Assembly: GCA_964351995.1 (NCBI GenBank)
Contig: CAYGQE010000006.1
Coordinates: 65,045-129,044 of the forward strand
Length of the DNA stretch: 64,000 nt
Direction of reading: 5' to 3'
Source of the DNA: an uncultured Acidimicrobiaceae bacterium
GTDB lineage: Bacteria; Actinomycetota; Acidimicrobiia; Acidimicrobiales; SZUA-35
A program made the translations under genes and the position numbers. This document shows positions 15,297 through 62,351 of this stretch, piece after piece. The number at the start of each line of letters is the position of its first letter. Position 1 is the first letter of the stretch. The notes beneath the pieces were generated by a model, which did not search any database, had not been told where the DNA came from, and saw only the letters and a program-made list of their open reading frames with translations.

Positions 15297-16157
15297 GTGC
15301 TGAGACCCCTCACGATCGTCGCAGGAAAAGGTGGGGTCGGCCGATCGACCACGGCGGCGGCGCTGGCGTTGAACGCTGGCGTAGCCGGGAAGAAGGTGTT
15401 GGCCGTCGATGCCACCAGCGATGGTGGCCTTCGTGCTGCCTTGGCCACGGCGCATGCGGCCGAGCGCAGCACCGTAGAACTCCTCGAGCTCACCACAGAT
15501 GAGGCGCTCGACGAGTACCTCAAGCTGTACCTGAAGGTCCCGATCCCGCCGTCTCGACTGGGCCCGATCGCTCGGATCTTCGACTACGTGGCCATGGCAG
15601 CCCCCGGCGTGCGGGAGATCCTCACAATCGGCAAGATTGCCAATGAGGTCCGCCGAGGCGGGTGGGACGCCGTTGTGGTCGACGCTCCGGCCACCGGGCA
15701 CGTGATCGAGCTGCTCGCAGCTCCCGAAACGCTGCAAGAACTCGTCAAGGTCGGGCCACTCACCGAGCAGACCCAGTGGATCTCTGACCTGCTCCGGAAC
15801 CCTGCGATCAGCGGTGTCGTCACCGTCACGACGTCGGAAGCCCTGCCGGTCAGCGAGTCGCTCGAACTGCTCGAGCGACTGATCGAGACTACGCAGGTCG
15901 ACCCCATCGGGTTCGTCGTCAACCGGCTCCCCGATCTTCTCGACGAGGCCGGTTATGCCGAGGCCGAGCGACTGCTCGACACCCTGTCGGCCGATGATCC
16001 ACTGGCCCGGGCGGTTGGCACCGTTGCCCACCGATCAGCGGCCGCTGTCACCGAGCTCGATCGGTTGTCTGATCTCGATCTGGGGCTGACCTGGGTACCA
16101 GAGTCAGCCGAGCCATTGGCCGCCGTTCGTTCGGCTCTCGCCGAGGTCGACGCATGA
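15297..16157 (+). CDS. ArsA/Get3-like P-loop ATPase (first of pair)
   Basis: P-loop AGKGGVGRST and DAPATGH switch motif. Confidence 0.75.
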   Translation: MLRPLTIVAGKGGVGRSTTAAALALNAGVAGKKVLAVDATSDGGLRAALATAHAAERSTVELLELTTDEALDEYLKLYLKVPIPPSRLGPIARIFDYVAMAAPGVREILTIGKIANEVRRGGWDAVVVDAPATGHVIELLAAPETLQELVKVGPLTEQTQWISDLLRNPAISGVVTVTTSEALPVSESLELLERLIETTQVDPIGFVVNRLPDLLDEAGYAEAERLLDTLSADDPLARAVGTVAHRSAAAVTELDRLSDLDLGLTWVPESAEPLAAVRSALAEVDA

Positions 16158-17209
16158 GCAAGAAGAAGCCCAAGAACGAGACACAGAGTTCGGTTGACGA
16201 ACTTCTCGCCACTGCCAGCGTCTTGTTGGTGGCCGGTCCCGGGGGAGTGGGCAAGACCACGCTGTCGGCATCGCTTGCGGCCCGGGCCGCTCGGGACCAT
16301 GGCCGACGGGCCCTCGTGGTCACGGTCGACCCCGCCAGGCGCCTCGCCGATGCGCTCAGCATTTCGGCCTCCGACGAGGCCATGTTGGTGCCTGTGGGCG
16401 ATGGCGACGGCAGGCTCTGGGCCCGCATGATCGACATGTCGTCGAGCTGGGATGAGCTCGTGGAGCGGACCGCTCCCGATGTCGAGACAGCGGATGCGCT
16501 GCTGCGAAATCGTCTTTACCGTACGCTCACGCAACGGTTCGTGCAGAGCCACGACTACATCGCGCTCGACCATCTCGTTGACCTTGCTGCTGATCGTCGC
16601 TACGACCTTGTCGTGGTTGACACGCCGCCGTCGGTGCACGCCCTCGACATCCTCGATGCGCCCGACAAGATGGCCGACTTCTTCGGCAGCCGCCTGCTGC
16701 GCTGGTTGATTGCCCCCTACGGCAGCCGAGTGGTGCAGGTCGCAGCCAAGCCGTTCCTCAGCGTTGCTGAACGCTTGCTCGGTGGGCCGTTCCTGTCTGA
16801 GATCACTGAGTTCTTCTGGTTGTTCTCCAAGTTGCAGGACGAGTTCGCCGACCGGCTCGATGTTGTGCGGCGCCAGCTCGCCGACCCGTCCACCAGCTAT
16901 CTCGTTGTGCACACGCCCGAGGCCATCCCGACCCAGCGAGCCGATGCCCTCATCGCCGAGCTTGCCCGCCGCGGTCACGCCGCATCGCTGCGATTGGTCA
17001 ACCGAGCGCTCGATCGGGACATCGCTGATCTCGATGGCCGACTCGACGAGATCGAGAATCCTGACTTGCGAGACGCCGTGGCCGACATCTCCGCTGCTGC
17101 CGCCCGCCAACTGGCCGATCGCGATGGGGCAGTGCCGTCGTTCTACGTCGGCAACAGCGACGTGCCGATCGAGAACGTGAACGTTTTGGCCGATCTTCTC
17201 GATTCCTGA
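16154..17209 (+). CDS. ArsA/Get3-like P-loop ATPase (second of pair)
   Basis: P-loop GPGGVGKTT and VVDTPPS motif. Overlaps the first ATPase gene by 4 nt. Confidence 0.75.
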   Translation: MSKKKPKNETQSSVDELLATASVLLVAGPGGVGKTTLSASLAARAARDHGRRALVVTVDPARRLADALSISASDEAMLVPVGDGDGRLWARMIDMSSSWDELVERTAPDVETADALLRNRLYRTLTQRFVQSHDYIALDHLVDLAADRRYDLVVVDTPPSVHALDILDAPDKMADFFGSRLLRWLIAPYGSRVVQVAAKPFLSVAERLLGGPFLSEITEFFWLFSKLQDEFADRLDVVRRQLADPSTSYLVVHTPEAIPTQRADALIAELARRGHAASLRLVNRALDRDIADLDGRLDEIENPDLRDAVADISAAAARQLADRDGAVPSFYVGNSDVPIENVNVLADLLDS

Positions 17210-18031: not shown

Positions 18032-18409
18032 ATGCTGGCGCCGATGCCAGACGCCCCGACCTCCTCGCTGCTCGAATGGTTTGCTGAACACGAACCCGAG
18101 CACACACATCGCGCTGGGTCGCTTGTCTTTGTCGACCTGGCAGCGATCGGGCCTGTCATCGACCGCGCCGAAGCGGCGGGAATGTCCATCCGGCAGGCTC
18201 GAGGCTTCGCTGTCGTTGACGACCTGGCCCGACCCGTCCAGGGTCAGCAGCTTGAACCAACGGTCGACGCCCTGCTCGACTGCGAGACGCCCAGCGGGTC
18301 GACCTGCGGCGCCGTCCGACGGGCATTGCGCGGCGTCTGGGCGGCCAACCCGCCAAGCGTCGGGCGCCACATGGTGTTGCTGACCTTCGATGACAACGGC
18401 GCCGTTTGA
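18032..18409 (+). CDS. Hypothetical protein (125 aa) translationally coupled to the PdtaS-like kinase
   Basis: Coding-like third-position GC bias. The TGA stop overlaps the ATG of the kinase (TGATG). I recognise no family. Confidence 0.5.
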   Translation: MLAPMPDAPTSSLLEWFAEHEPEHTHRAGSLVFVDLAAIGPVIDRAEAAGMSIRQARGFAVVDDLARPVQGQQLEPTVDALLDCETPSGSTCGAVRRALRGVWAANPPSVGRHMVLLTFDDNGAV

Positions 18410-19869
18410 TGGCATCGTTACGTGATCTGGTCAGGCAACACGGCCACCTCGAAAGCGAGCAGGTCCAGCATCTTCGCAACCTCGTTGCGTCGTGGGCACT
18501 TCTGGCCGACCTCAGCTTTGCCGACCTCTCGCTCCTTGTGCCTGCCGCCCAGTCGAGCGAGCATCGCTTCTTCGTGGCCGGCCATGTGCGTCCGGCCACG
18601 TCGCAAACGCTCTACCGAGATGACCAAGTGGGCCGCTTCCTGGGCACGGGCGAACGTCCGATCGTCGCCGAGTGCTGGGAGACGCAGCGACCAGCGGAGG
18701 GCATCAGCGAAGTTGACGGCGTGAGATTCTCGGTGCAGGCCATCCCGGTGTGTCACGACGGCAAGATCATCGCCGTCCTCGCTGCTGATGCTCCGGTTCG
18801 AGCCGATGCTGAACGAAGCGAAGTCGAGCGGGCCTATCGCTCGGTCTTCGAGTCGTTCGCCTTGATGGTGGGCGACGGCAGCTTCCCTTACGAATCGGAT
18901 CAGCGCTCCGAGCCCTCCGTGCGGGTCGGCGACGGTGCCATCGTGATGGATCGTGCCGCCCGGATCCAGTTCACGTCACCGAACGCCGTCAGCGCGCTCC
19001 ACCGGCTTGGTTTCCACTCCAACGCCGTTGGTCGGAGTGCCGATGACATCGGTATCCAGGCCGACGTCATCCGTACGGCCTTCAGTCTGCTCGTGCCCGT
19101 CACTCAAGAGCTCGAGCGGGGATCGGCAACCGCCATCCACGCCAGGGTGCTGCCCTTGATCGAGGGCAACCACGCCTCGGGCGCGCTTGTGCTGTTGCGC
19201 GATGTCTCTGACCTGCGGGAACAGGAGCGCCGGTTGGTCTCGATGGATGCCACCATCCGCGAGATCCATCACCGGGTGAAGAACAACCTGCAGACGGTTT
19301 CGTCGCTGCTCCGTCTCCAGGGGCGACGGCTCGAGTCTGGCGAAGCAAAGTCGGCGATCGACGAGTCGGTGCGCCGCATCCGATCGATTGCGCTGGTCCA
19401 CGAGATCCTGGCGCAGGACGGTGGCGACGACGTCCGCTTCCTCGACGTCGCCGTGCCGATCACCCAGATGGTCGAACAAGCGCTGGTCTCTCCCGATCGT
19501 CCGGTCACCATCCGGTTTGTCGGTGACGGCCCCACCCTGCCCGCTTCGGTGTCTTCCTCTCTGGCCGTCGTCCTGACCGAGCTGCTCCAAAACGCCGTCG
19601 AGCACGGCTATCCGCCAGGAAGCAACGGGGGGCGGGTCACGATCGAGTTGCAGAGCACCGCTCGAGGCATCACCGTGCGTGTGCACGACGATGGCGTTGG
19701 TCTGCCGCCAGGTTTTGACCTGTCAGCCTCTGACGGGCTTGGCCTGACCATTGCGCAAACGCTGGCGTCGGGTGATCTCGGGGGAGAGCTGTCACTGCGA
19801 CCTGCTGCCCACGGCGACGGCACGATCGCTGAGATTCGCGCTGAGTTCGACGACCAAGACACCGTCTGA
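18406..19869 (+). CDS. pdtaS: PdtaS-type sensor histidine kinase (GAF/PAS, HisKA_2, HATPase)
   Basis: LLADLSFAD N-terminus, SPNAVSALHRLGF, and H-box DATIREIHHRVKNNLQTVSSLLRLQ. It lies next to a WhiB1-like gene, as pdtaS does in mycobacteria. Confidence 0.8.
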   Translation: MMASLRDLVRQHGHLESEQVQHLRNLVASWALLADLSFADLSLLVPAAQSSEHRFFVAGHVRPATSQTLYRDDQVGRFLGTGERPIVAECWETQRPAEGISEVDGVRFSVQAIPVCHDGKIIAVLAADAPVRADAERSEVERAYRSVFESFALMVGDGSFPYESDQRSEPSVRVGDGAIVMDRAARIQFTSPNAVSALHRLGFHSNAVGRSADDIGIQADVIRTAFSLLVPVTQELERGSATAIHARVLPLIEGNHASGALVLLRDVSDLREQERRLVSMDATIREIHHRVKNNLQTVSSLLRLQGRRLESGEAKSAIDESVRRIRSIALVHEILAQDGGDDVRFLDVAVPITQMVEQALVSPDRPVTIRFVGDGPTLPASVSSSLAVVLTELLQNAVEHGYPPGSNGGRVTIELQSTARGITVRVHDDGVGLPPGFDLSASDGLGLTIAQTLASGDLGGELSLRPAAHGDGTIAEIRAEFDDQDTV

Positions 19870-19953: not shown

Positions 19954-20262
19954 TCAGACAGCGGTGCGGCGACGACGGCCAAGGTAGGTGCGACGCAGCT
20001 GGCGGCGCTCCTCTTCGGACGTGCCTCCCCAGATGCCGGTGTCCTGATTCGTTCGCAGGGCGAACTCGAGGCAGGCGAGTTGCGCTGGGCAGCTGTTGCA
20101 GACCTGCTTGGCTTCATCGATCTGCTCGAGTGCGCTACCTGTGGTGCCGACCGGGAAGAAGAGATCGGGATCGGTGTCGCAACACGACGCCGTGGAGCGC
20201 CAGCTGAGGTCACTCGTGGTGTTCGGAGTGTTCGCAACCTTCTGAGCGATGCGCTCGGCCAT
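19954..20262 (-). CDS. whiB1: WhiB1-like Fe-S transcription factor
   Basis: CCDTDPDLFFP...AKQVCNSCPAQLACLEFAL...GIWGGTSEEERRQLRR. The start is uncertain: the ORF extends to 20370, but homology favours the ATG at 20262. Confidence 0.85.
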   Translation of the reverse strand: MAERIAQKVANTPNTTSDLSWRSTASCCDTDPDLFFPVGTTGSALEQIDEAKQVCNSCPAQLACLEFALRTNQDTGIWGGTSEEERRQLRRTYLGRRRRTAV

Positions 20263-20453
20263 TGCGGGAATGGCACCCGTCATCGTCATCTGGTTGGCGA
20301 TGATCCGGTGTTTTTCCGCAATCAGTCGATCGTGTCCAACGTCGTCGGTGGGGGTATCGAATGTGGTCACGCGGCCTCCAGATCATGTCGATGGCGGCGG
20401 TGCCGTCGACGGGAAGACAGTACCGAGTACTTCGACTCTCGTAAAGAGTATGG

Positions 20454-53953: not shown

Positions 53954-54799
53954 TCACGCCGGGCGGGTGTGTGATGGTGCGAGCTTGTCGAATTGGTCGA
54001 GCAGACCTTCGACATCTGGCGCCCAGATGGTGGCACCGGCAGCCTCGGCTTCCACCCGGCCGGGCACGCCTGCCCCGCCGAGTGCAACGTGAGCGTTTGG
54101 TCGGCGAGCACGAATCGCCGTGATGGTGTCCTTGGCCTGAGCGAGACTCGCACTGGTGGTCGAAGAGATGACGACACCGATGAACGGGCGGTCAGCCGAG
54201 CCCATGTCCATCACTTCGAGGAATGACTCGGCAGGAGTGTCGGCCCCGAGGTCTGTGACCTCGAAGTGGCGGCCCCGGAGGAGGTCGGCGATGATCGCGG
54301 TCGTCAGCGCGTGGGCGTCACCGGAGACCAAGCCGACCACGATGTGGCCGCGGCCAGTACCGCGGCGATGAAAACGAGGTCCGAGTCGGGCCGTGATCCG
54401 AGACGCAATGGTGGTCGCCTGGTGTTCGTCGAACACTTCGATCTCGTTGTTGGCCCACCGTTGACCGATCGAGCGCATGGCAGGGATGAGCATCCGGAGG
54501 TGGATCTCGGCTGGCTCGGCACCGGACGTCAGCGCTTGGGAGACAACGGCCCAGGCGCCAGGCTCGTCAGCAACGAGGAGTCGGTCTTCGAGCTGCGCAG
54601 CGGCTCGAGTGCGTACGCCCTCGCTGGGCTTTGAGTCGTTGCCGTTGGCAAGTGCTTCGATGTCTGCCGAGTCGACAAACCATTGACCGCCTTCTTTGGT
54701 GGCCGCCAAGCGCCCCGTTCGCACATAGCGGTACACGGTCATGTAGTGCAGTCCGAGGTTCTCGGCTGCAGCCCGAAGGCTGATCGAATCCGCCGGCAT
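53954..54799 (-). CDS. CarH/LitR-like regulator: excisionase/MerR-type HTH, W-x9-E-H helical bundle, B12-binding domain (paralog 2)
   Basis: HTH ISLRAAAENLGLHYMTVYRYVRTGRL; QRWANNEIEVFDEH (W-x9-EH); Rossmann IVVGLVSGDAHALTTAIIADL. Confidence 0.75.
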   Translation of the reverse strand: MPADSISLRAAAENLGLHYMTVYRYVRTGRLAATKEGGQWFVDSADIEALANGNDSKPSEGVRTRAAAQLEDRLLVADEPGAWAVVSQALTSGAEPAEIHLRMLIPAMRSIGQRWANNEIEVFDEHQATTIASRITARLGPRFHRRGTGRGHIVVGLVSGDAHALTTAIIADLLRGRHFEVTDLGADTPAESFLEVMDMGSADRPFIGVVISSTTSASLAQAKDTITAIRARRPNAHVALGGAGVPGRVEAEAAGATIWAPDVEGLLDQFDKLAPSHTRPA

Positions 54800-54884: not shown

Positions 54885-55121
54885 TCAGCGGCGACGGCGA
54901 CGACGGTGGGCGTCAATCTTGCGCGCTGACTTGATGACACCCTCGAGGCGCTCGGTGAGTTCGGCCGGCTCTTCTCGGGCTTCGGTATCGAGTTCAGGAG
55001 CCAAGGCTTCGAGGATGGCGCTGACGCTCACGCCCTGTTCGGCGGCGAATCCGTGCCACTGATCGTGGGCGTCATCGCTGACATAGGCATGCAGGGCCTT
55101 GCGGCCATTGTCTTGAGACAT
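54885..55121 (-). CDS. Small hypothetical protein, possible ribbon-helix-helix fold with poly-Arg tail
   Basis: ALHAYVSDDAHDQWHGFAAEQGVSVSAILEAL resembles a strand-helix-helix unit. The protein ends in HRRRRRR. Confidence 0.4.
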   Translation of the reverse strand: MSQDNGRKALHAYVSDDAHDQWHGFAAEQGVSVSAILEALAPELDTEAREEPAELTERLEGVIKSARKIDAHRRRRRR

Positions 55122-58961: not shown

Positions 58962-59750
58962 GTGGAACAGCGGCGGTTTCTCGACGTGCCGGGAAGGTCG
59001 AGCGTTGGTTTCGATGGCGACCGAGACGATGTCGCCGTGTGGTGTCGCGGCCCAATCGAGCGACACTCCAGTGCCGTGCTCTTGGTGCACGACCGCCTGA
59101 GCAACGCTCGCTCGTGGGATCTCGTGATGGGCCGGCTGCCTGCGGGTGTAGCCGTCGTGGCCGTGGACCTTCGCGGTCGAGGTTCGGCGTGGCGGCAATC
59201 ACCGTCTCTCGGTCTCGGCACCCACGTTGCCGACCTCGTTGATCTTCTCGTCCGCCTCGACTTCGACGAGGTGCTTGCCGTTGGGCATGGGTTCGGAGCG
59301 ACGGTGGTGCAGGCGCTCGCAACGACGTCGCCGGACCGCGTTGCCCTCACGATCGGCGTGCTTGGCCAGGTCAGTGATGATCCGTTCGAGTCTGTGCTGG
59401 GCTTGGCTTTTCCCGATCGGGACGAACACCTCCGCTTCTGGAAGCTCCACCCTCGCTTCGCCTCGGCCGATGCTCGCGCCATCGACGCATTCGTTGCCCA
59501 CGGGATTGCGGGTCCGCAAGATCACCATCGATGGCGGGTCGACCTTCGCTCGCTGGTCGCCGACGATCACGACGCCGCGACGGGATCGGCGTCGAGCTTT
59601 TCTCGGACCATCACCATTGGCAGCGACATGCAGGCGCCGACGTTGGTTGGCACCACGACGCAGCTGCCCCATCTCGATCCTGCCGTGGGATTGCTGACCA
59701 CGATCGGAGCAGACGCGATCGCTGCTCAGATCCTTCCGTTCCTGGTCTGA
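58962..59750 (+). CDS. Alpha/beta-hydrolase-fold protein with Gly in place of the nucleophile Ser
   Basis: LLVHD, DLRGRGSA, and an elbow that reads LAVGHGFGATV where GHSxG is expected. Confidence 0.7.
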   Translation: MEQRRFLDVPGRSSVGFDGDRDDVAVWCRGPIERHSSAVLLVHDRLSNARSWDLVMGRLPAGVAVVAVDLRGRGSAWRQSPSLGLGTHVADLVDLLVRLDFDEVLAVGHGFGATVVQALATTSPDRVALTIGVLGQVSDDPFESVLGLAFPDRDEHLRFWKLHPRFASADARAIDAFVAHGIAGPQDHHRWRVDLRSLVADDHDAATGSASSFSRTITIGSDMQAPTLVGTTTQLPHLDPAVGLLTTIGADAIAAQILPFLV

Positions 59751-59756
59751 AACCAG

Positions 59757-60566
59757 CTACGCAGCGAGCAAGACCATCACCAGAAGCATGGCAGCGATGA
59801 ACCCGACGAACAGCCACTCCATACGGCTTCTCGTCAGGCGCTCGTTGCGCAGGTAGGTCTCGAGGATCTCGGATCGACCGGCGGCTTCGAGCAACTCTTG
59901 TTCCATCTCGCTGAGGCGGTGTTGACGGCCGGCGTTTGCCCGTCGAGCCAGAGCAAGTTGGCTGGTGAGAGCCTCTTGCTGGCTCTTGAGATCGGAGAAT
60001 GCTGTCTCGGTGTCGCTGAGTTGCTGCTCCAGCGCCACTCGATCGACATCGGGAGCGGTCGCGTCGTCGCCGGTCGGAAGGGGGTTCTTCAAACGAGCGC
60101 GGATCTTGCGGAGATCACTTGCCGAGTCAGGCTCGACGGGAGCGAGGATCCGTTCGATGGCAAGCAAGATGCTCTCGAGGTAGGACGTGTCGTCTGGGAG
60201 GTTGAAGTGAGCCCAGAGGTTTCGAGCCTCGATCAACTGCTCGACCAGTCGCCGCAGGTCTGCAGTGAACGTGTTGCTGAAGACTGGGCCCCAAAAGCGG
60301 CGAAGTACGAGGAGCTGGAACAGCGGATCTGTCGCACCGTGCTCGGCTGGACGGCCCATGCGGTTGGCGGCCGCCTCGGTCCAGGAGACCTCGTCTGCGA
60401 AGTGTTCGTGCATCTGTTCGTCGATGAACGGACCCATTCCGAGCGCGAAGATCTCGAAGGCCTCGGCCATCTGGCCGTGCCTGCTCACTCTCAGATCGGG
60501 GCGAACGGATGTCATGGGTGGCTCGGTACTGCTTTCCACGTCGGGCGTCGATCTGATTATCGGCAC
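59757..60566 (-). CDS. Swt1-like HEPN domain protein with coiled-coil and C-terminal membrane anchor
   Basis: FEIFALGMGPFI...DPLFQLLVLRRFWGPVF...LIEARNLWAH gives R-x4-H. An Ala/Gln/Glu/Leu-rich helical segment of about 100 aa follows, then the terminal TM WLFVGFIAAMLLVMVLLAA. GTG start. Confidence 0.6.
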   Translation of the reverse strand: MPIIRSTPDVESSTEPPMTSVRPDLRVSRHGQMAEAFEIFALGMGPFIDEQMHEHFADEVSWTEAAANRMGRPAEHGATDPLFQLLVLRRFWGPVFSNTFTADLRRLVEQLIEARNLWAHFNLPDDTSYLESILLAIERILAPVEPDSASDLRKIRARLKNPLPTGDDATAPDVDRVALEQQLSDTETAFSDLKSQQEALTSQLALARRANAGRQHRLSEMEQELLEAAGRSEILETYLRNERLTRSRMEWLFVGFIAAMLLVMVLLAA

Positions 60567-60595
60567 GAAATGGCGCTGGCTGAGAAGAATCTTTC

Positions 60596-60623
60596 AGCGG
60601 GAACAGTCTTCTGACTTCCCGCT
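60596..60623. promoter_or_regulatory. 8-bp inverted repeat AGCGGGAA-N12-TTCCCGCT in the HEPN / GGDEF-EAL divergent region
   Basis: Read directly from the centre of the 99-nt intergenic region. Confidence 0.3.
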
Positions 60624-60665
60624 CGAATCGCTCAAGTTTGGGTCTGAACGGCCGTTCCCACAGTT

Positions 60666-62351
60666 GTGAAGAAAACCCGACTCGCCCTTCATCCAGGGCA
60701 AGTGCTCCTGGCCGGCGTGATCGGCGCGGTCCTTTGGACCGCTGTACTGTCGACCCTGGTCGGCATTTCGTTTCGGGAGACCGTCTTGGCATCGAGCGGC
60801 GGCTTCATGGGCGCCGCAGCGGGAACATGCGGTGCGCTCATCCAGGCCCACCGAGCTCGGGCCGCACGCGACATGTTGGAGCGAGCGGAACACGAAGCCA
60901 ATCACGATGGTCTGACGAACCTGTTGAACCGCAACGCACTCCTTCGCCAGCTCGACGCCTCGATCGTCACCGCTCGGAAGAACGACACCGTCGTCGGCGT
61001 GCTTTTCCTCGACCTCAACCGGTTCAAGGTCATCAACGACTCGATGGGCCATGAAGCGGGCGATGAGCTGTTGCGGATCGTCGCTGAACGATTGCTCTCG
61101 ACCGTTCGAGGCTCGGACATCGTCGCTCGATTCGGCGGTGACGAATTCGTCGTCGTCGTTCGAGGCCTCCTGAATCAGAAGTCGGTCATTGCTGTTGTCG
61201 ATCAGATTCTCCACACCTTCGAGAAACAGGTGTCTCTGTTCGGCGGAGCGCTCGTGGTCTCGACTTCGATCGGTGTCGCCATCACCCGGCCGGGAGAGAC
61301 GCGCAGTGCCGAGGATCTGCTGCGAGATGCAGACGCTGCGATGTACAAGGCGAAGAAGGGGCGCGGCGGCTACGCACTGTTCGACGACCAGCAGCGAGCG
61401 GAGGCCGTCGACCGACTCGACATCGAACGCGACCTCGTTCGGGCGCTCGTCGAAAAGCAGCTCACGGTCTTCTTCCAGCCGCTCGTCGACGTGTCGACCA
61501 AGCGCCTCTACGCCTTCGAGGCGCTGGTTCGCTGGAACCATCCAAAACGTGGCCTGATTGGTCCCGGTGCCTTTCTGGGCGTGGCCGAGGAGACGGGCAT
61601 GATGGCCGAGATCGGCGAGTACGTGCTGCGAGAAGCCACGGCACAAGCTGCGGTCTGGAACCATCTGAACCCGAATGCCCGATCAGTGAAGATGAGCGTG
61701 AACATCGCTGAACAACAGCTGATCGACAAGAACTTCCCGGAGACCGTGCAGAACGTCTTGTTGTGGTCAGGGCTTCCTGCCGACCAGCTGGTGCTCGAGA
61801 TCACCGAGGACGTGATCGTTGACCACCTCGACGGTGTCAGCATCCTCAACCGCATTCGGGACCTGGGGGTGTCGCTGGCGATCGACGACTTCGGTACCGG
61901 CCAGTCATCGCTGAGCTACATCAAGCAATTCGACATGGTGTCCACGTTGAAGATCGATCAGGTCTTCGTCCGTGAAATGAACGATGGCGACTCGAACAGA
62001 GCCATCATCGAGGCCATCGTTGCGATGGCGAAGGCGCTTCACCTGCGGGTGGTTGCTGAGGGCGTCGAGACCATCGAACAGGTCAACCAACTGCGCACTT
62101 TGGGTGTCGACGTCATGCAGGGATACCTGTTCAACGCTCCACTCGCAGCGAATGGCATCGATCCAGCATCGTGGTTTGTGCCTGACGCACCGGTACCAGA
62201 TGCTGCCGAAGGGCTCACGCCGCTCGAGGTTGCCACGGGGCTCGCCACGGCGGCTGCGGTGCCTTCGAGCACAGTTCCTTCGAGCACGGTTCCTTCGGCG
62301 GACGACTCGATCCCGCTCGGTTTGCGTCAACGCCCCGCTCGTCGAGGCTGA
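60666..62351 (+). CDS. Membrane-anchored GGDEF-EAL protein (diguanylate cyclase/phosphodiesterase)
   Basis: RFGGDEFVVVV, FEALVRW and DDFGTGQSSLSYI, with N-terminal TM helices. GTG start. Confidence 0.9.
   Translation: MKKTRLALHPGQVLLAGVIGAVLWTAVLSTLVGISFRETVLASSGGFMGAAAGTCGALIQAHRARAARDMLERAEHEANHDGLTNLLNRNALLRQLDASIVTARKNDTVVGVLFLDLNRFKVINDSMGHEAGDELLRIVAERLLSTVRGSDIVARFGGDEFVVVVRGLLNQKSVIAVVDQILHTFEKQVSLFGGALVVSTSIGVAITRPGETRSAEDLLRDADAAMYKAKKGRGGYALFDDQQRAEAVDRLDIERDLVRALVEKQLTVFFQPLVDVSTKRLYAFEALVRWNHPKRGLIGPGAFLGVAEETGMMAEIGEYVLREATAQAAVWNHLNPNARSVKMSVNIAEQQLIDKNFPETVQNVLLWSGLPADQLVLEITEDVIVDHLDGVSILNRIRDLGVSLAIDDFGTGQSSLSYIKQFDMVSTLKIDQVFVREMNDGDSNRAIIEAIVAMAKALHLRVVAEGVETIEQVNQLRTLGVDVMQGYLFNAPLAANGIDPASWFVPDAPVPDAAEGLTPLEVATGLATAAAVPSSTVPSSTVPSADDSIPLGLRQRPARRG

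Follow-up and report, generated by a model that had tools for sequence, protein, structure and literature searches.

A tail-anchored Swt1-like HEPN protein paired with a membrane GGDEF-EAL enzyme in Acidimicrobiales

In bacteria, HEPN RNases have been described almost exclusively as toxins and as effectors of immunity. Here, we have analyzed a 64-kb stretch of DNA from an uncultured Acidimicrobiaceae bacterium (contig CAYGQE010000006.1, positions 65,045 to 129,044; in the following the window, in which all positions are counted) where an intact-looking HEPN domain belongs to a stable, vertically inherited core gene. The encoded protein ends in a single C-terminal transmembrane helix, and its gene is divergent from a gene for a GGDEF-EAL enzyme of cyclic di-GMP (c-di-GMP) signaling. 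The closest described relatives by domain are bacterial HEPN domains of the Swt1-like type that are joined to DUF499 AAA+ ATPases in restriction-modification-like systems (Ava_2192 type; PMC3710099), with which our protein shares the Pfam family PF18731, the N-terminal position of the HEPN domain and the motifs DP.FQL...FW.P.F and RN.WAH. Whereas those proteins are large soluble ATPase fusions in restriction-modification or defense operons, the protein described here has 252 amino acids, no ATPase, a core-genome location and a c-di-GMP partner. The C-terminal HEPN domain of yeast Swt1 (PDB entry 4pqz) gives the family its name and is the sole notable structural match to both of our AlphaFold2 models. 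The similarity is weak, however, and eukaryotic Swt1 is a PIN nuclease from whose HEPN domain the motif has been lost (PMC3710099), whereas the present protein has an intact motif and no PIN.

Cytoplasmic HEPN domains tethered to the membrane have been described in the eukaryotic KEN proteins Ire1 and RNase L, in C6orf70 and in three bacterial groups, with signal-responsive cleavage of RNA on the membrane's inner face as their proposed role (PMC3710099). None of the three bacterial groups (WP-TM plus HEPN; alpha-domain, transmembrane segment and C-terminal HEPN; HEPN, two transmembrane segments and Zn-ribbon) matches the architecture found here, which consists of an N-terminal HEPN domain, a linker, a long stalk and a single C-terminal transmembrane helix without any external part. 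RNase Y is a core-genome endoribonuclease with an N-terminal membrane helix, a coiled-coil dimerization region and KH and HD catalytic domains. It resembles our protein in that a single membrane helix and a coiled coil hold an endoribonuclease at the membrane and in that the gene belongs to the core genome, but it has the opposite orientation, unrelated catalytic domains and no homology. A literature search returned no paper joining HEPN with the term 'tail-anchored' and none tying HEPN to GGDEF in this sense. The domain family is known; what is new is the architecture and the wiring, i.e., a domesticated tail-anchored HEPN protein that appears tied to c-di-GMP and to sigma-28-type control.

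In this study, we propose that the gene encodes a tail-anchored, probably dimeric Swt1-like HEPN endoribonuclease that would be co-expressed with the c-di-GMP enzyme under a WhiG-type sigma factor. We give this reading an even chance; its RNase activity, dimerization, sigma-factor dependence and biological role are predicted from sequence.

Architecture of the HEPN protein

The gene and the parts of its product are the following:
59757-60515, minus strand: coding sequence of the tail-anchored Swt1-family HEPN protein, 252 amino acids plus stop, ATG at 60515 (homologues; gene call on identical contigs)
60087-60494, minus strand: HEPN domain, residues 8-143, seven helices (Pfam PF18731, AlphaFold2, Foldseek)
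60207-60224, minus strand: R-N-L-W-A-H, R98 to H103, the R-x4-H motif of HEPN RNases (read from the sequence)
60042-60086, minus strand: flexible linker, residues 144-158, differing among homologues in both length and sequence
59826-60041, minus strand: helical stalk, residues 159-230, probable coiled coil (AlphaFold2, heptad harmonics)
59760-59816, minus strand: C-terminal transmembrane tail anchor WLFVGFIAAMLLVMVLLAA, residues 234-252 (hydropathy)

The HEPN gene is real and strongly conserved. Its minus-strand open reading frame (ORF) extends over 59757-60566 and yields 269 amino acids when read from GTG 60566, which was the form given in an earlier reading of the sequence alone (the sequence-only reading). 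The start must instead be placed at ATG 60515, because, of 165 HEPN homologues, nearly all of those at >80% identity are 251-255 amino acids long, because the gene call on identical contigs gives 252 amino acids from this ATG, because the 51 nt at 60516-60566 contain frame-breaking indels in a relative with a 92%-identical protein, and because GTG 60566 lies inside a conserved promoter-like motif. Consequently, the spacer between the HEPN and GGDEF-EAL genes measures 150 nt and not the 99 nt formerly taken as their shared control region. No second HEPN copy was found in the window or in the collected loci.

The assignment of the N-terminal domain is carried by the Pfam family HEPN_Swt1 (PF18731). 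The match, at residues 36-142 of the 269-amino-acid form, reaches 52.9 bits (E-value 5.2e-14; gathering cutoff 27.5) and spans 111 of the 115 profile positions, and the family is found in 165/165 homologues. The motif ARNLWAH (codons at 60207-60227) contains the polar residue that follows the arginine in the HEPN_Swt1 signature R-x4-6-H, as seen in R98-N-L-W-A-H103. In an alignment of 26 homologues with 50-92% identity, R98, N99, W101, A102 and H103 are invariant, as are R12-H13 near the N-terminus and the block DPLFQLLV.RRFW.P.F; RN.WAH is also retained in a paralogous tail-anchored clade. Both the Swt1-like assignment and the intact R-x4-H motif, as originally read from the letters, are thereby upheld. 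The domain assignment as such is not new, since the source databases already name members 'Swt1 family HEPN domain-containing protein'.

Structure prediction is compatible with this assignment. AlphaFold2 reached a predicted local distance difference test score (pLDDT) of 91 for the domain alone and of 86 for the full protein modeled on the homologue alignment, in which residues 8-143 form a seven-helix domain. In Foldseek searches against the PDB, the first match of the full model was 4pqz (probability 0.99, TM-score 0.56 by target, E 0.06), and the same entry again came first for the domain-only model (probability 0.94, TM-score 0.47, E 0.24); the other matches were helical-bundle noise. Searches of PDB sequences with the protein and with its profile gave no matches, and an NCBIfam search with the HEPN protein returned only coiled-coil noise. 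The fold evidence is thus consistent but weak, so that membership in the family is based on profile score and motif.

The domain is followed by a linker that varies in length by up to ~35 residues among the aligned homologues and that falls below a pLDDT of 50 at residues 148-155. From residue 159 to 251, AlphaFold2 predicts a single unbroken helix that includes the transmembrane segment, with a pLDDT of 86-94 in the stalk. The stalk is probably a coiled coil of ~72 residues: its hydrophobicity repeats with periods of 7, 3.5 and 2.3 residues, 3.4% of shuffles exceed its power at 3.5, and profile searches gave weak matches to SMC and cortexillin coils. The coil of about 100 amino acids proposed earlier is accordingly present as a helical stalk, but over the shorter span 159-230. 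Conserved stalk positions in the alignment, listed as polar-type, are R191, A195, Q198 and E205. RsiG's motif for binding c-di-GMP, E-x3-S-x2-R-x3-Q-x3-D, is absent from the stalk in 26/26 homologues, also in a loosened form.

Residues 234-252 are the sole segment of the 252-amino-acid protein with a Kyte-Doolittle mean above 1.6 (mean 2.71); no residues follow them, and the 12 residues before them include four arginines. The single C-terminal helix noted at the outset recurs in 26/26 homologues as one strongly hydrophobic 19-mer at the extreme C-terminus, with a tail of 0-3 residues and 1-4 Lys/Arg in the 12 residues upstream. By sequence, the protein has the layout of a tail-anchored protein, with one transmembrane segment near the C-terminus and no other hydrophobic segment. 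The basic residues just before this segment would place the HEPN domain in the cytoplasm.

The HEPN gene is under strong purifying selection. Compared with relatives of 81-92% identity, its ratio of nonsynonymous to synonymous substitution rates (dN/dS) is 0.05-0.11 overall and similarly low in the HEPN domain, the stalk (0.02-0.09) and the transmembrane segment, and the linker alone is relaxed (0.17-0.61); all these ratios are approximate because the synonymous divergence is near saturation.

The GGDEF-EAL partner and the spacer between the two genes

The partner gene and the elements of the spacer are located as follows:
60666-62351, plus strand: gene of the membrane-anchored GGDEF-EAL protein, 561 amino acids, GTG start, divergent from the HEPN gene
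60557-60584, minus strand: promoter-like motif of the HEPN gene, -35 CTCA (60584-60581), 16 nt, -10 GCCGATAA (60564-60557)
60631-60658, plus strand: promoter-like motif of the GGDEF-EAL gene, -35 CTCA (60631-60634), 16 nt, -10 GCCGTTCC (60651-60658)
60596-60603 and 60616-60623, no strand: 8-bp inverted repeat AGCGGGAA/TTCCCGCT, its arms separated by a loop of 12 nt, located between both -35 boxes

A scan with one genome per species gave 53 HEPN-carrying loci, all from metagenome-assembled genomes of Acidimicrobiales/Acidimicrobiia and with one copy each. The GGDEF-EAL gene is the immediate divergent neighbor in 51/51 of these loci with enough upstream DNA, mostly across a spacer of 100-270 nt. 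Its product scores 1.3e-44 for GGDEF and 9.7e-67 for EAL in Pfam and has two N-terminal transmembrane helices, no periplasmic domain and no sensor domain. In all 49 orthologues, the position of GGDEF is residue 156 or 157; 49/49 keep the RxxD I-site and 48/49 keep EAL.

The pairing exceeds the synteny of the surrounding block in three respects. In locus L051 and those related to it, both genes have been flipped together with respect to DUF3097/GDSL and M50, and in L052 the pair is kept without any block genes within 10 kb. A metagenomic contig (L067, 8001-9648) runs from GDSL-DUF3097 directly into SDR-M50 (71% and 40% identity to the window proteins), with ~90 nt in place of the pair, and this empty site indicates that both genes are gained or lost together. 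L067 stems from a metagenome scan anchored on DUF3097, which returned mostly unrelated actinobacteria and in which only L067 and L068 were informative. The dependence is one-sided: the HEPN gene always occurs with the GGDEF-EAL gene, but not the reverse. Two distant relatives of the enzyme (56-61% identity; L147 and L148) lie divergently beside a monomeric isocitrate dehydrogenase gene without a HEPN gene. The partnership with a c-di-GMP enzyme is hence stronger than had been claimed from the single locus.

Both genes are preceded by motifs of the sigma-28/FliA/WhiG class. For Actinomycetota, the published consensus sequences are CTCA-N16-17-GCCGAACT for WhiG1 and T(A/C)AA-N16-GCCGATAA for WhiG2 (PMC12871210), and the regulon rule of the same study asks for either of two queries, CTCA-N16-17-GCCGA and T(A/C)AA-N16-GCCGA, in the 200 bp upstream of a start codon. 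On the HEPN side, the match to the WhiG1 query is exact (60584-60560, 45 nt before the ATG; the full motif ends 41 nt before ATG 60515). This motif is exact in 35/53 loci and present in 38/53 with the published mismatch rule, compared to 0.12 and 0.62 in shuffles. On the other side, the motif ends 7 nt before the GTG start, which implies a leaderless or near-leaderless GGDEF-EAL mRNA, and its distance to this codon is constant, at 8-11 nt, in 44-46/53 loci (shuffles 0.3-0.4). In the sigma-28/WhiG conservation test, the enzyme side scored in 44/53 loci (shuffles 0.29) and both sides in 33/53. Within the window, the pattern CTCAR-N15-GCCGWT has two matches where 0.21 are expected, both of them in the spacer and facing outward. 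The HEPN-less relatives carry the classical sigma-28 motif TAAA-N16-GCCGTT 8-11 nt before the ATG (L147 5960-6003; L148 5950-6003), so that the leaderless sigma-28-type promoter, including its unusual -10 GCCGTT, belongs to the enzyme family as such, the HEPN gene being what was added.

The spacer is comparable to known WhiG/FliA regulons in two respects: CTCA-N16-GCCGA(T/A) before the HEPN gene equals the WhiG1 query, and the partner belongs to a typical target class, the diguanylate cyclase and phosphodiesterase genes being the most widespread predicted WhiG targets (PMC12871210). It differs in the -10 of the GGDEF-EAL gene, which reads GCCGTT and not GCCGA. In Streptomyces and Rubrobacter, sequestration of WhiG by the anti-sigma factor RsiG requires bound c-di-GMP (PMC7005675; PMC8325347). 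Three of four Acidimicrobiales species were found to have RsiG (PMC8325347), which reportedly never occurs without a WhiG homologue (PMC12871210). In its main text, the regulon-prediction study names no HEPN protein and no Acidimicrobiia target (PMC12871210).

Other candidate elements of the spacer were discarded. The inverted repeat at 60596-60623 exists as described in the sequence-only reading, but its role as a control element was discounted in view of its ordinary frequency and its lack of conservation: an equally good repeat occurs in 33/426 of the 150-nt tiles of the window and in 2.7% of spacer shuffles, and the repeat has already decayed in relatives whose proteins are 92% and 88% identical. 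An extracytoplasmic function-type promoter facing the HEPN gene, for which the island AACGGC...TTGAG was considered, was rejected since the fixed distance of 8-11 nt from the GGDEF-EAL start and the reverse complement CTCA-N16-GCCGTT show that the island faces the opposite way. Rfam at permissive thresholds gave only noise for riboswitches or known RNAs in the spacer, and no meaningful sigma-70-type promoters or terminators were found in the region.

Neighborhood and relatives

The pair is embedded in a conserved block in the order glycosyltransferase, aminotransferase, ABC-F, GDSL lipase, DUF3097, GGDEF-EAL (divergent), HEPN, an optional hydrolase, SDR, M50 peptidase, glutaredoxin, a 78-amino-acid ORF and a GyrA/GyrB-type topoisomerase II pair. 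This synteny is kept from 92% down to ~45% identity, and the remainder of the window is also housekeeping. On the side away from the enzyme, the HEPN gene is followed by either a convergent alpha/beta hydrolase gene or a co-directional SDR gene; the hydrolase is present in some relatives only and thus marks a variable slot between HEPN and SDR. In the window, the HEPN stop (59757-59759) and the convergent hydrolase stop (59748-59750) lie 6 nt apart with no terminator-like hairpin between them. The small ORF of 78-79 amino acids has no Pfam family (window 54885-55121, minus strand; L001 15395-15631), sits between the glutaredoxin gene and a gene for a B12-binding regulator or an AAA ATPase, and is kept in all six HEPN-carrying loci annotated that far downstream.

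Elsewhere in the window, tandem genes for ArsA/Get3-family ATPases (15297-16157 and 16154-17209, plus strand) adjoin those for a WhiB protein (19954-20370, minus strand) and a PdtaS-like histidine kinase (18406-19869, plus strand), an arrangement resembling the Rv3679-Rv3680/whiB4 region of mycobacteria. Since eukaryotes and archaea use Get3 to insert their tail-anchored proteins, the ATPases of the window could be relevant to the membrane delivery of a bacterial tail-anchored protein.

The HEPN gene is a vertically inherited, lineage-specific gene of an Acidimicrobiales subgroup, under strong purifying selection. An exhaustive search of 1.84 billion representatives with a profile of the HEPN domain only gave 434 relatives at E <=0.001. 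The family is narrow, because only 8 of these 434 reach E <1e-30 and a gap in score, from 162 to 96 bits, follows the 8 best relatives (a 119-bit fragment being set aside). Among the 146 newly returned of the best 150 representatives (P0121-P0266), a tail anchor is limited to this clade, a clade of ~306 amino acids and two isolated sequences. Beyond the tail-anchored clades, the next relatives have an N-terminal HEPN domain fused to DUF499-type ATPases.

The second tail-anchored clade (~306 amino acids, 439 database matches) also belongs to Acidimicrobiales and has one member in Rhabdothermincola sediminis. It was located in three loci:
L064 8001-8924, L065 8001-8927 and L066 8001-8927: paralogous HEPN-stalk-tail-anchor genes (proteins P0286, P0309, P0332 and P0136)
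These proteins are homologous to ours over the full length, from the HEPN domain through the stalk to the transmembrane segment (hhalign probability 99.9, E 1e-34), with a stalk that is ~55 residues longer. Their genes lie among bioD/bioF/bioA-like biotin-synthesis genes with a B12-binding MerR regulator.

Two observations concern this second clade. An exact match to the WhiG1 query (CTCAA-N-GGCCGA) recurs 1.2-2.7 kb downstream of the paralogous HEPN gene (L064 11598, L065 10161 and L066 10699, all on the minus strand) and faces an uncharacterized gene convergent on it, possibly a further regulon member. In addition, MerR-type B12-binding regulators of the light-responsive LitR/CarH-like class are encoded in the window (53954-54799, minus strand), in L064 (1-797) and in L065 (6236-7102), that is, a few genes from the window HEPN gene and, in L064, beside carotenoid genes near the paralogous one. 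Their proximity to both HEPN clades may be due to chance, to an ancient segmental duplication or to common regulation by light.

Explanations and their weight

HEPN RNases generally require paired domains to form a composite active site. In the proposed mechanism, the C-terminal helix of 19 residues would fix the protein in the membrane, and the helical stalk of ~72 residues (~10 nm), joined to the HEPN domain by the flexible linker of 15 residues, would pair two chains in parallel and bring two HEPN domains together into such a site. Anchoring would confine cleavage to membrane-proximal RNAs. The GGDEF-EAL enzyme would make and/or degrade c-di-GMP, and both genes would be driven from the 150-nt spacer by promoters of the sigma-28/FliA/WhiG class. 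A fall in c-di-GMP would free the WhiG-type sigma factor, which would then turn on the GGDEF-EAL gene, as feedback, together with the membrane HEPN RNase; the latter would serve as a post-transcriptional output that reshapes the transcriptome during a lifestyle switch. More tentatively, we suggest that c-di-GMP signaling might in this way possess an RNA-level output, in which a WhiG-released, domesticated and non-suicidal HEPN RNase selectively destroys membrane-proximal transcripts for the lifestyle switch, with the GGDEF-EAL enzyme as feedback; this extended version is possible but doubtful.

Several observations weigh against the proposal. Fifteen of the 53 loci lack a rule-conforming motif on the HEPN side and mostly carry variants such as TTCA-N16-xxCGAAGAG, and on the GGDEF-EAL side a T replaces the A in the near-invariant central CGA of the WhiG consensus. 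A tblastn search of 1.78 Mb of collected DNA with an E. coli FliA query returned no sigma-28 gene. The heptad signal of the stalk is only modestly significant (p ~0.03), and Foldseek matched Swt1 only weakly (E 0.06-0.24, TM-score 0.45-0.56), neither model reaching E 0.001. The HEPN domain of eukaryotic Swt1 is itself thought to be inactive (PMC3710099). In L064-L066, the paralogous clade has neither a GGDEF-EAL neighbor nor a WhiG-type motif upstream, and the distant GGDEF-EAL members without a HEPN neighbor indicate that the enzyme does not need the HEPN protein.

Two other explanations also keep the protein at the membrane. It may be a regulatory partner of the enzyme, with its transmembrane segment and stalk docking on the two-helix anchor of the GGDEF-EAL protein and setting the balance between cyclase and phosphodiesterase, and with the HEPN domain acting as an RNA or nucleotide sensor and not chiefly as a degradative RNase. 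The one-sided pairing would suit such a role, as would the membrane anchors of both proteins, the lack of a periplasmic or cytoplasmic sensor module in the enzyme, the conserved polar-type stalk positions and the constraint on stalk and transmembrane segment, which equals that on the HEPN domain; moreover, some HEPN domains have been proposed to be RNA sensors (PMC3710099). Yet R-N-x-W-A-H is invariant across both paralogous clades, which favors chemistry over mere binding, the second clade has the same architecture in the absence of a GGDEF-EAL neighbor, and the stalk has no RsiG-type c-di-GMP motif, so that we regard this explanation as improbable. Alternatively, the protein could be a housekeeping membrane RNase for RNA turnover, RNase Y-like or Ire1-like, whose synteny is merely inherited, which has no tie to c-di-GMP and whose promoter class reflects the local regulatory landscape. 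Such a view fits a region that as a whole is a deeply conserved syntenic block, a paralogous clade of the same architecture near biotin genes, and related GGDEF-EAL genes that keep a sigma-28-type promoter without any HEPN gene. It has to contend with a pair that survives inversion against its flanks (L051) and relocation out of the block (L052), that is absent as a unit at L067, and in which a separate promoter of the sigma-28 type precedes the HEPN gene and is conserved in 35-38/53 loci; we consider it unlikely.

A toxin, abortive-infection or phage-triggered role, as first suspected, was also weighed. Under such a scheme, a nucleotide signal made by the GGDEF enzyme upon infection or stress would activate the membrane HEPN RNase and thereby arrest or kill the cell, comparable to Cas10 and Csm6 of type III CRISPR, CBASS or Panoptes. 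HEPN domains are indeed common abortive-infection effectors, the closest relatives lacking the anchor are fusions with DUF499 ATPases from restriction-modification-like systems (PMC3710099), and a nucleotide cyclase beside an effector is a layout of signaling-based defense. The HEPN protein, however, contains no CARF, SAVED or other sensor domain, and the GGDEF-EAL partner is of the ordinary kind, with both I-site and EAL preserved. PADLOC gave a single fragment match to the HEPN protein (E 0.056, coiled-coil noise) and nothing for the GGDEF-EAL protein and five neighbors; PHROGs has no family for the HEPN protein, tblastn found no HEPN relatives in phages and, among 72,556 plasmid records, one distant relative with 24% identity, and a BFVD search for viral folds gave no match. 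As the sequence-only reading had noted, no antitoxin is adjacent, neither an MNT nucleotidyltransferase nor a small partner, in the 8 annotated HEPN-carrying loci (L001-L007, L061-L063). The gene does not show a patchy, mobile distribution in variable defense islands. The locus is not a defense island, and the HEPN gene does not behave like a mobile toxin. Because the gene is single-copy, vertically inherited, under purifying selection (dN/dS 0.05-0.11) and part of a housekeeping block of the core genome, with no phage, PADLOC or PHROGs matches, the toxin reading has lost its support, and on present evidence a defense module is the least likely of the three rivals, a very remote prospect in our estimation. 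The other suggestion of the sequence-only reading, a membrane-localized RNA-processing factor, stays the best reading.

In summary, the comparison places a HEPN protein with an intact R-x4-H motif among the core genes of an Acidimicrobiales lineage, and HEPN alone should not be taken as a sign of defense. If the proposal of a WhiG-controlled, tail-anchored HEPN endoribonuclease is true, regulated RNA cleavage at the membrane would join the outputs of c-di-GMP/WhiG signaling, and the membrane-tethered eukaryotic HEPN nucleases such as Ire1 would have a bacterial counterpart. It would also provide a concrete set of WhiG targets for the Acidimicrobiia, a poorly studied group that is abundant in soil, freshwater and wastewater.

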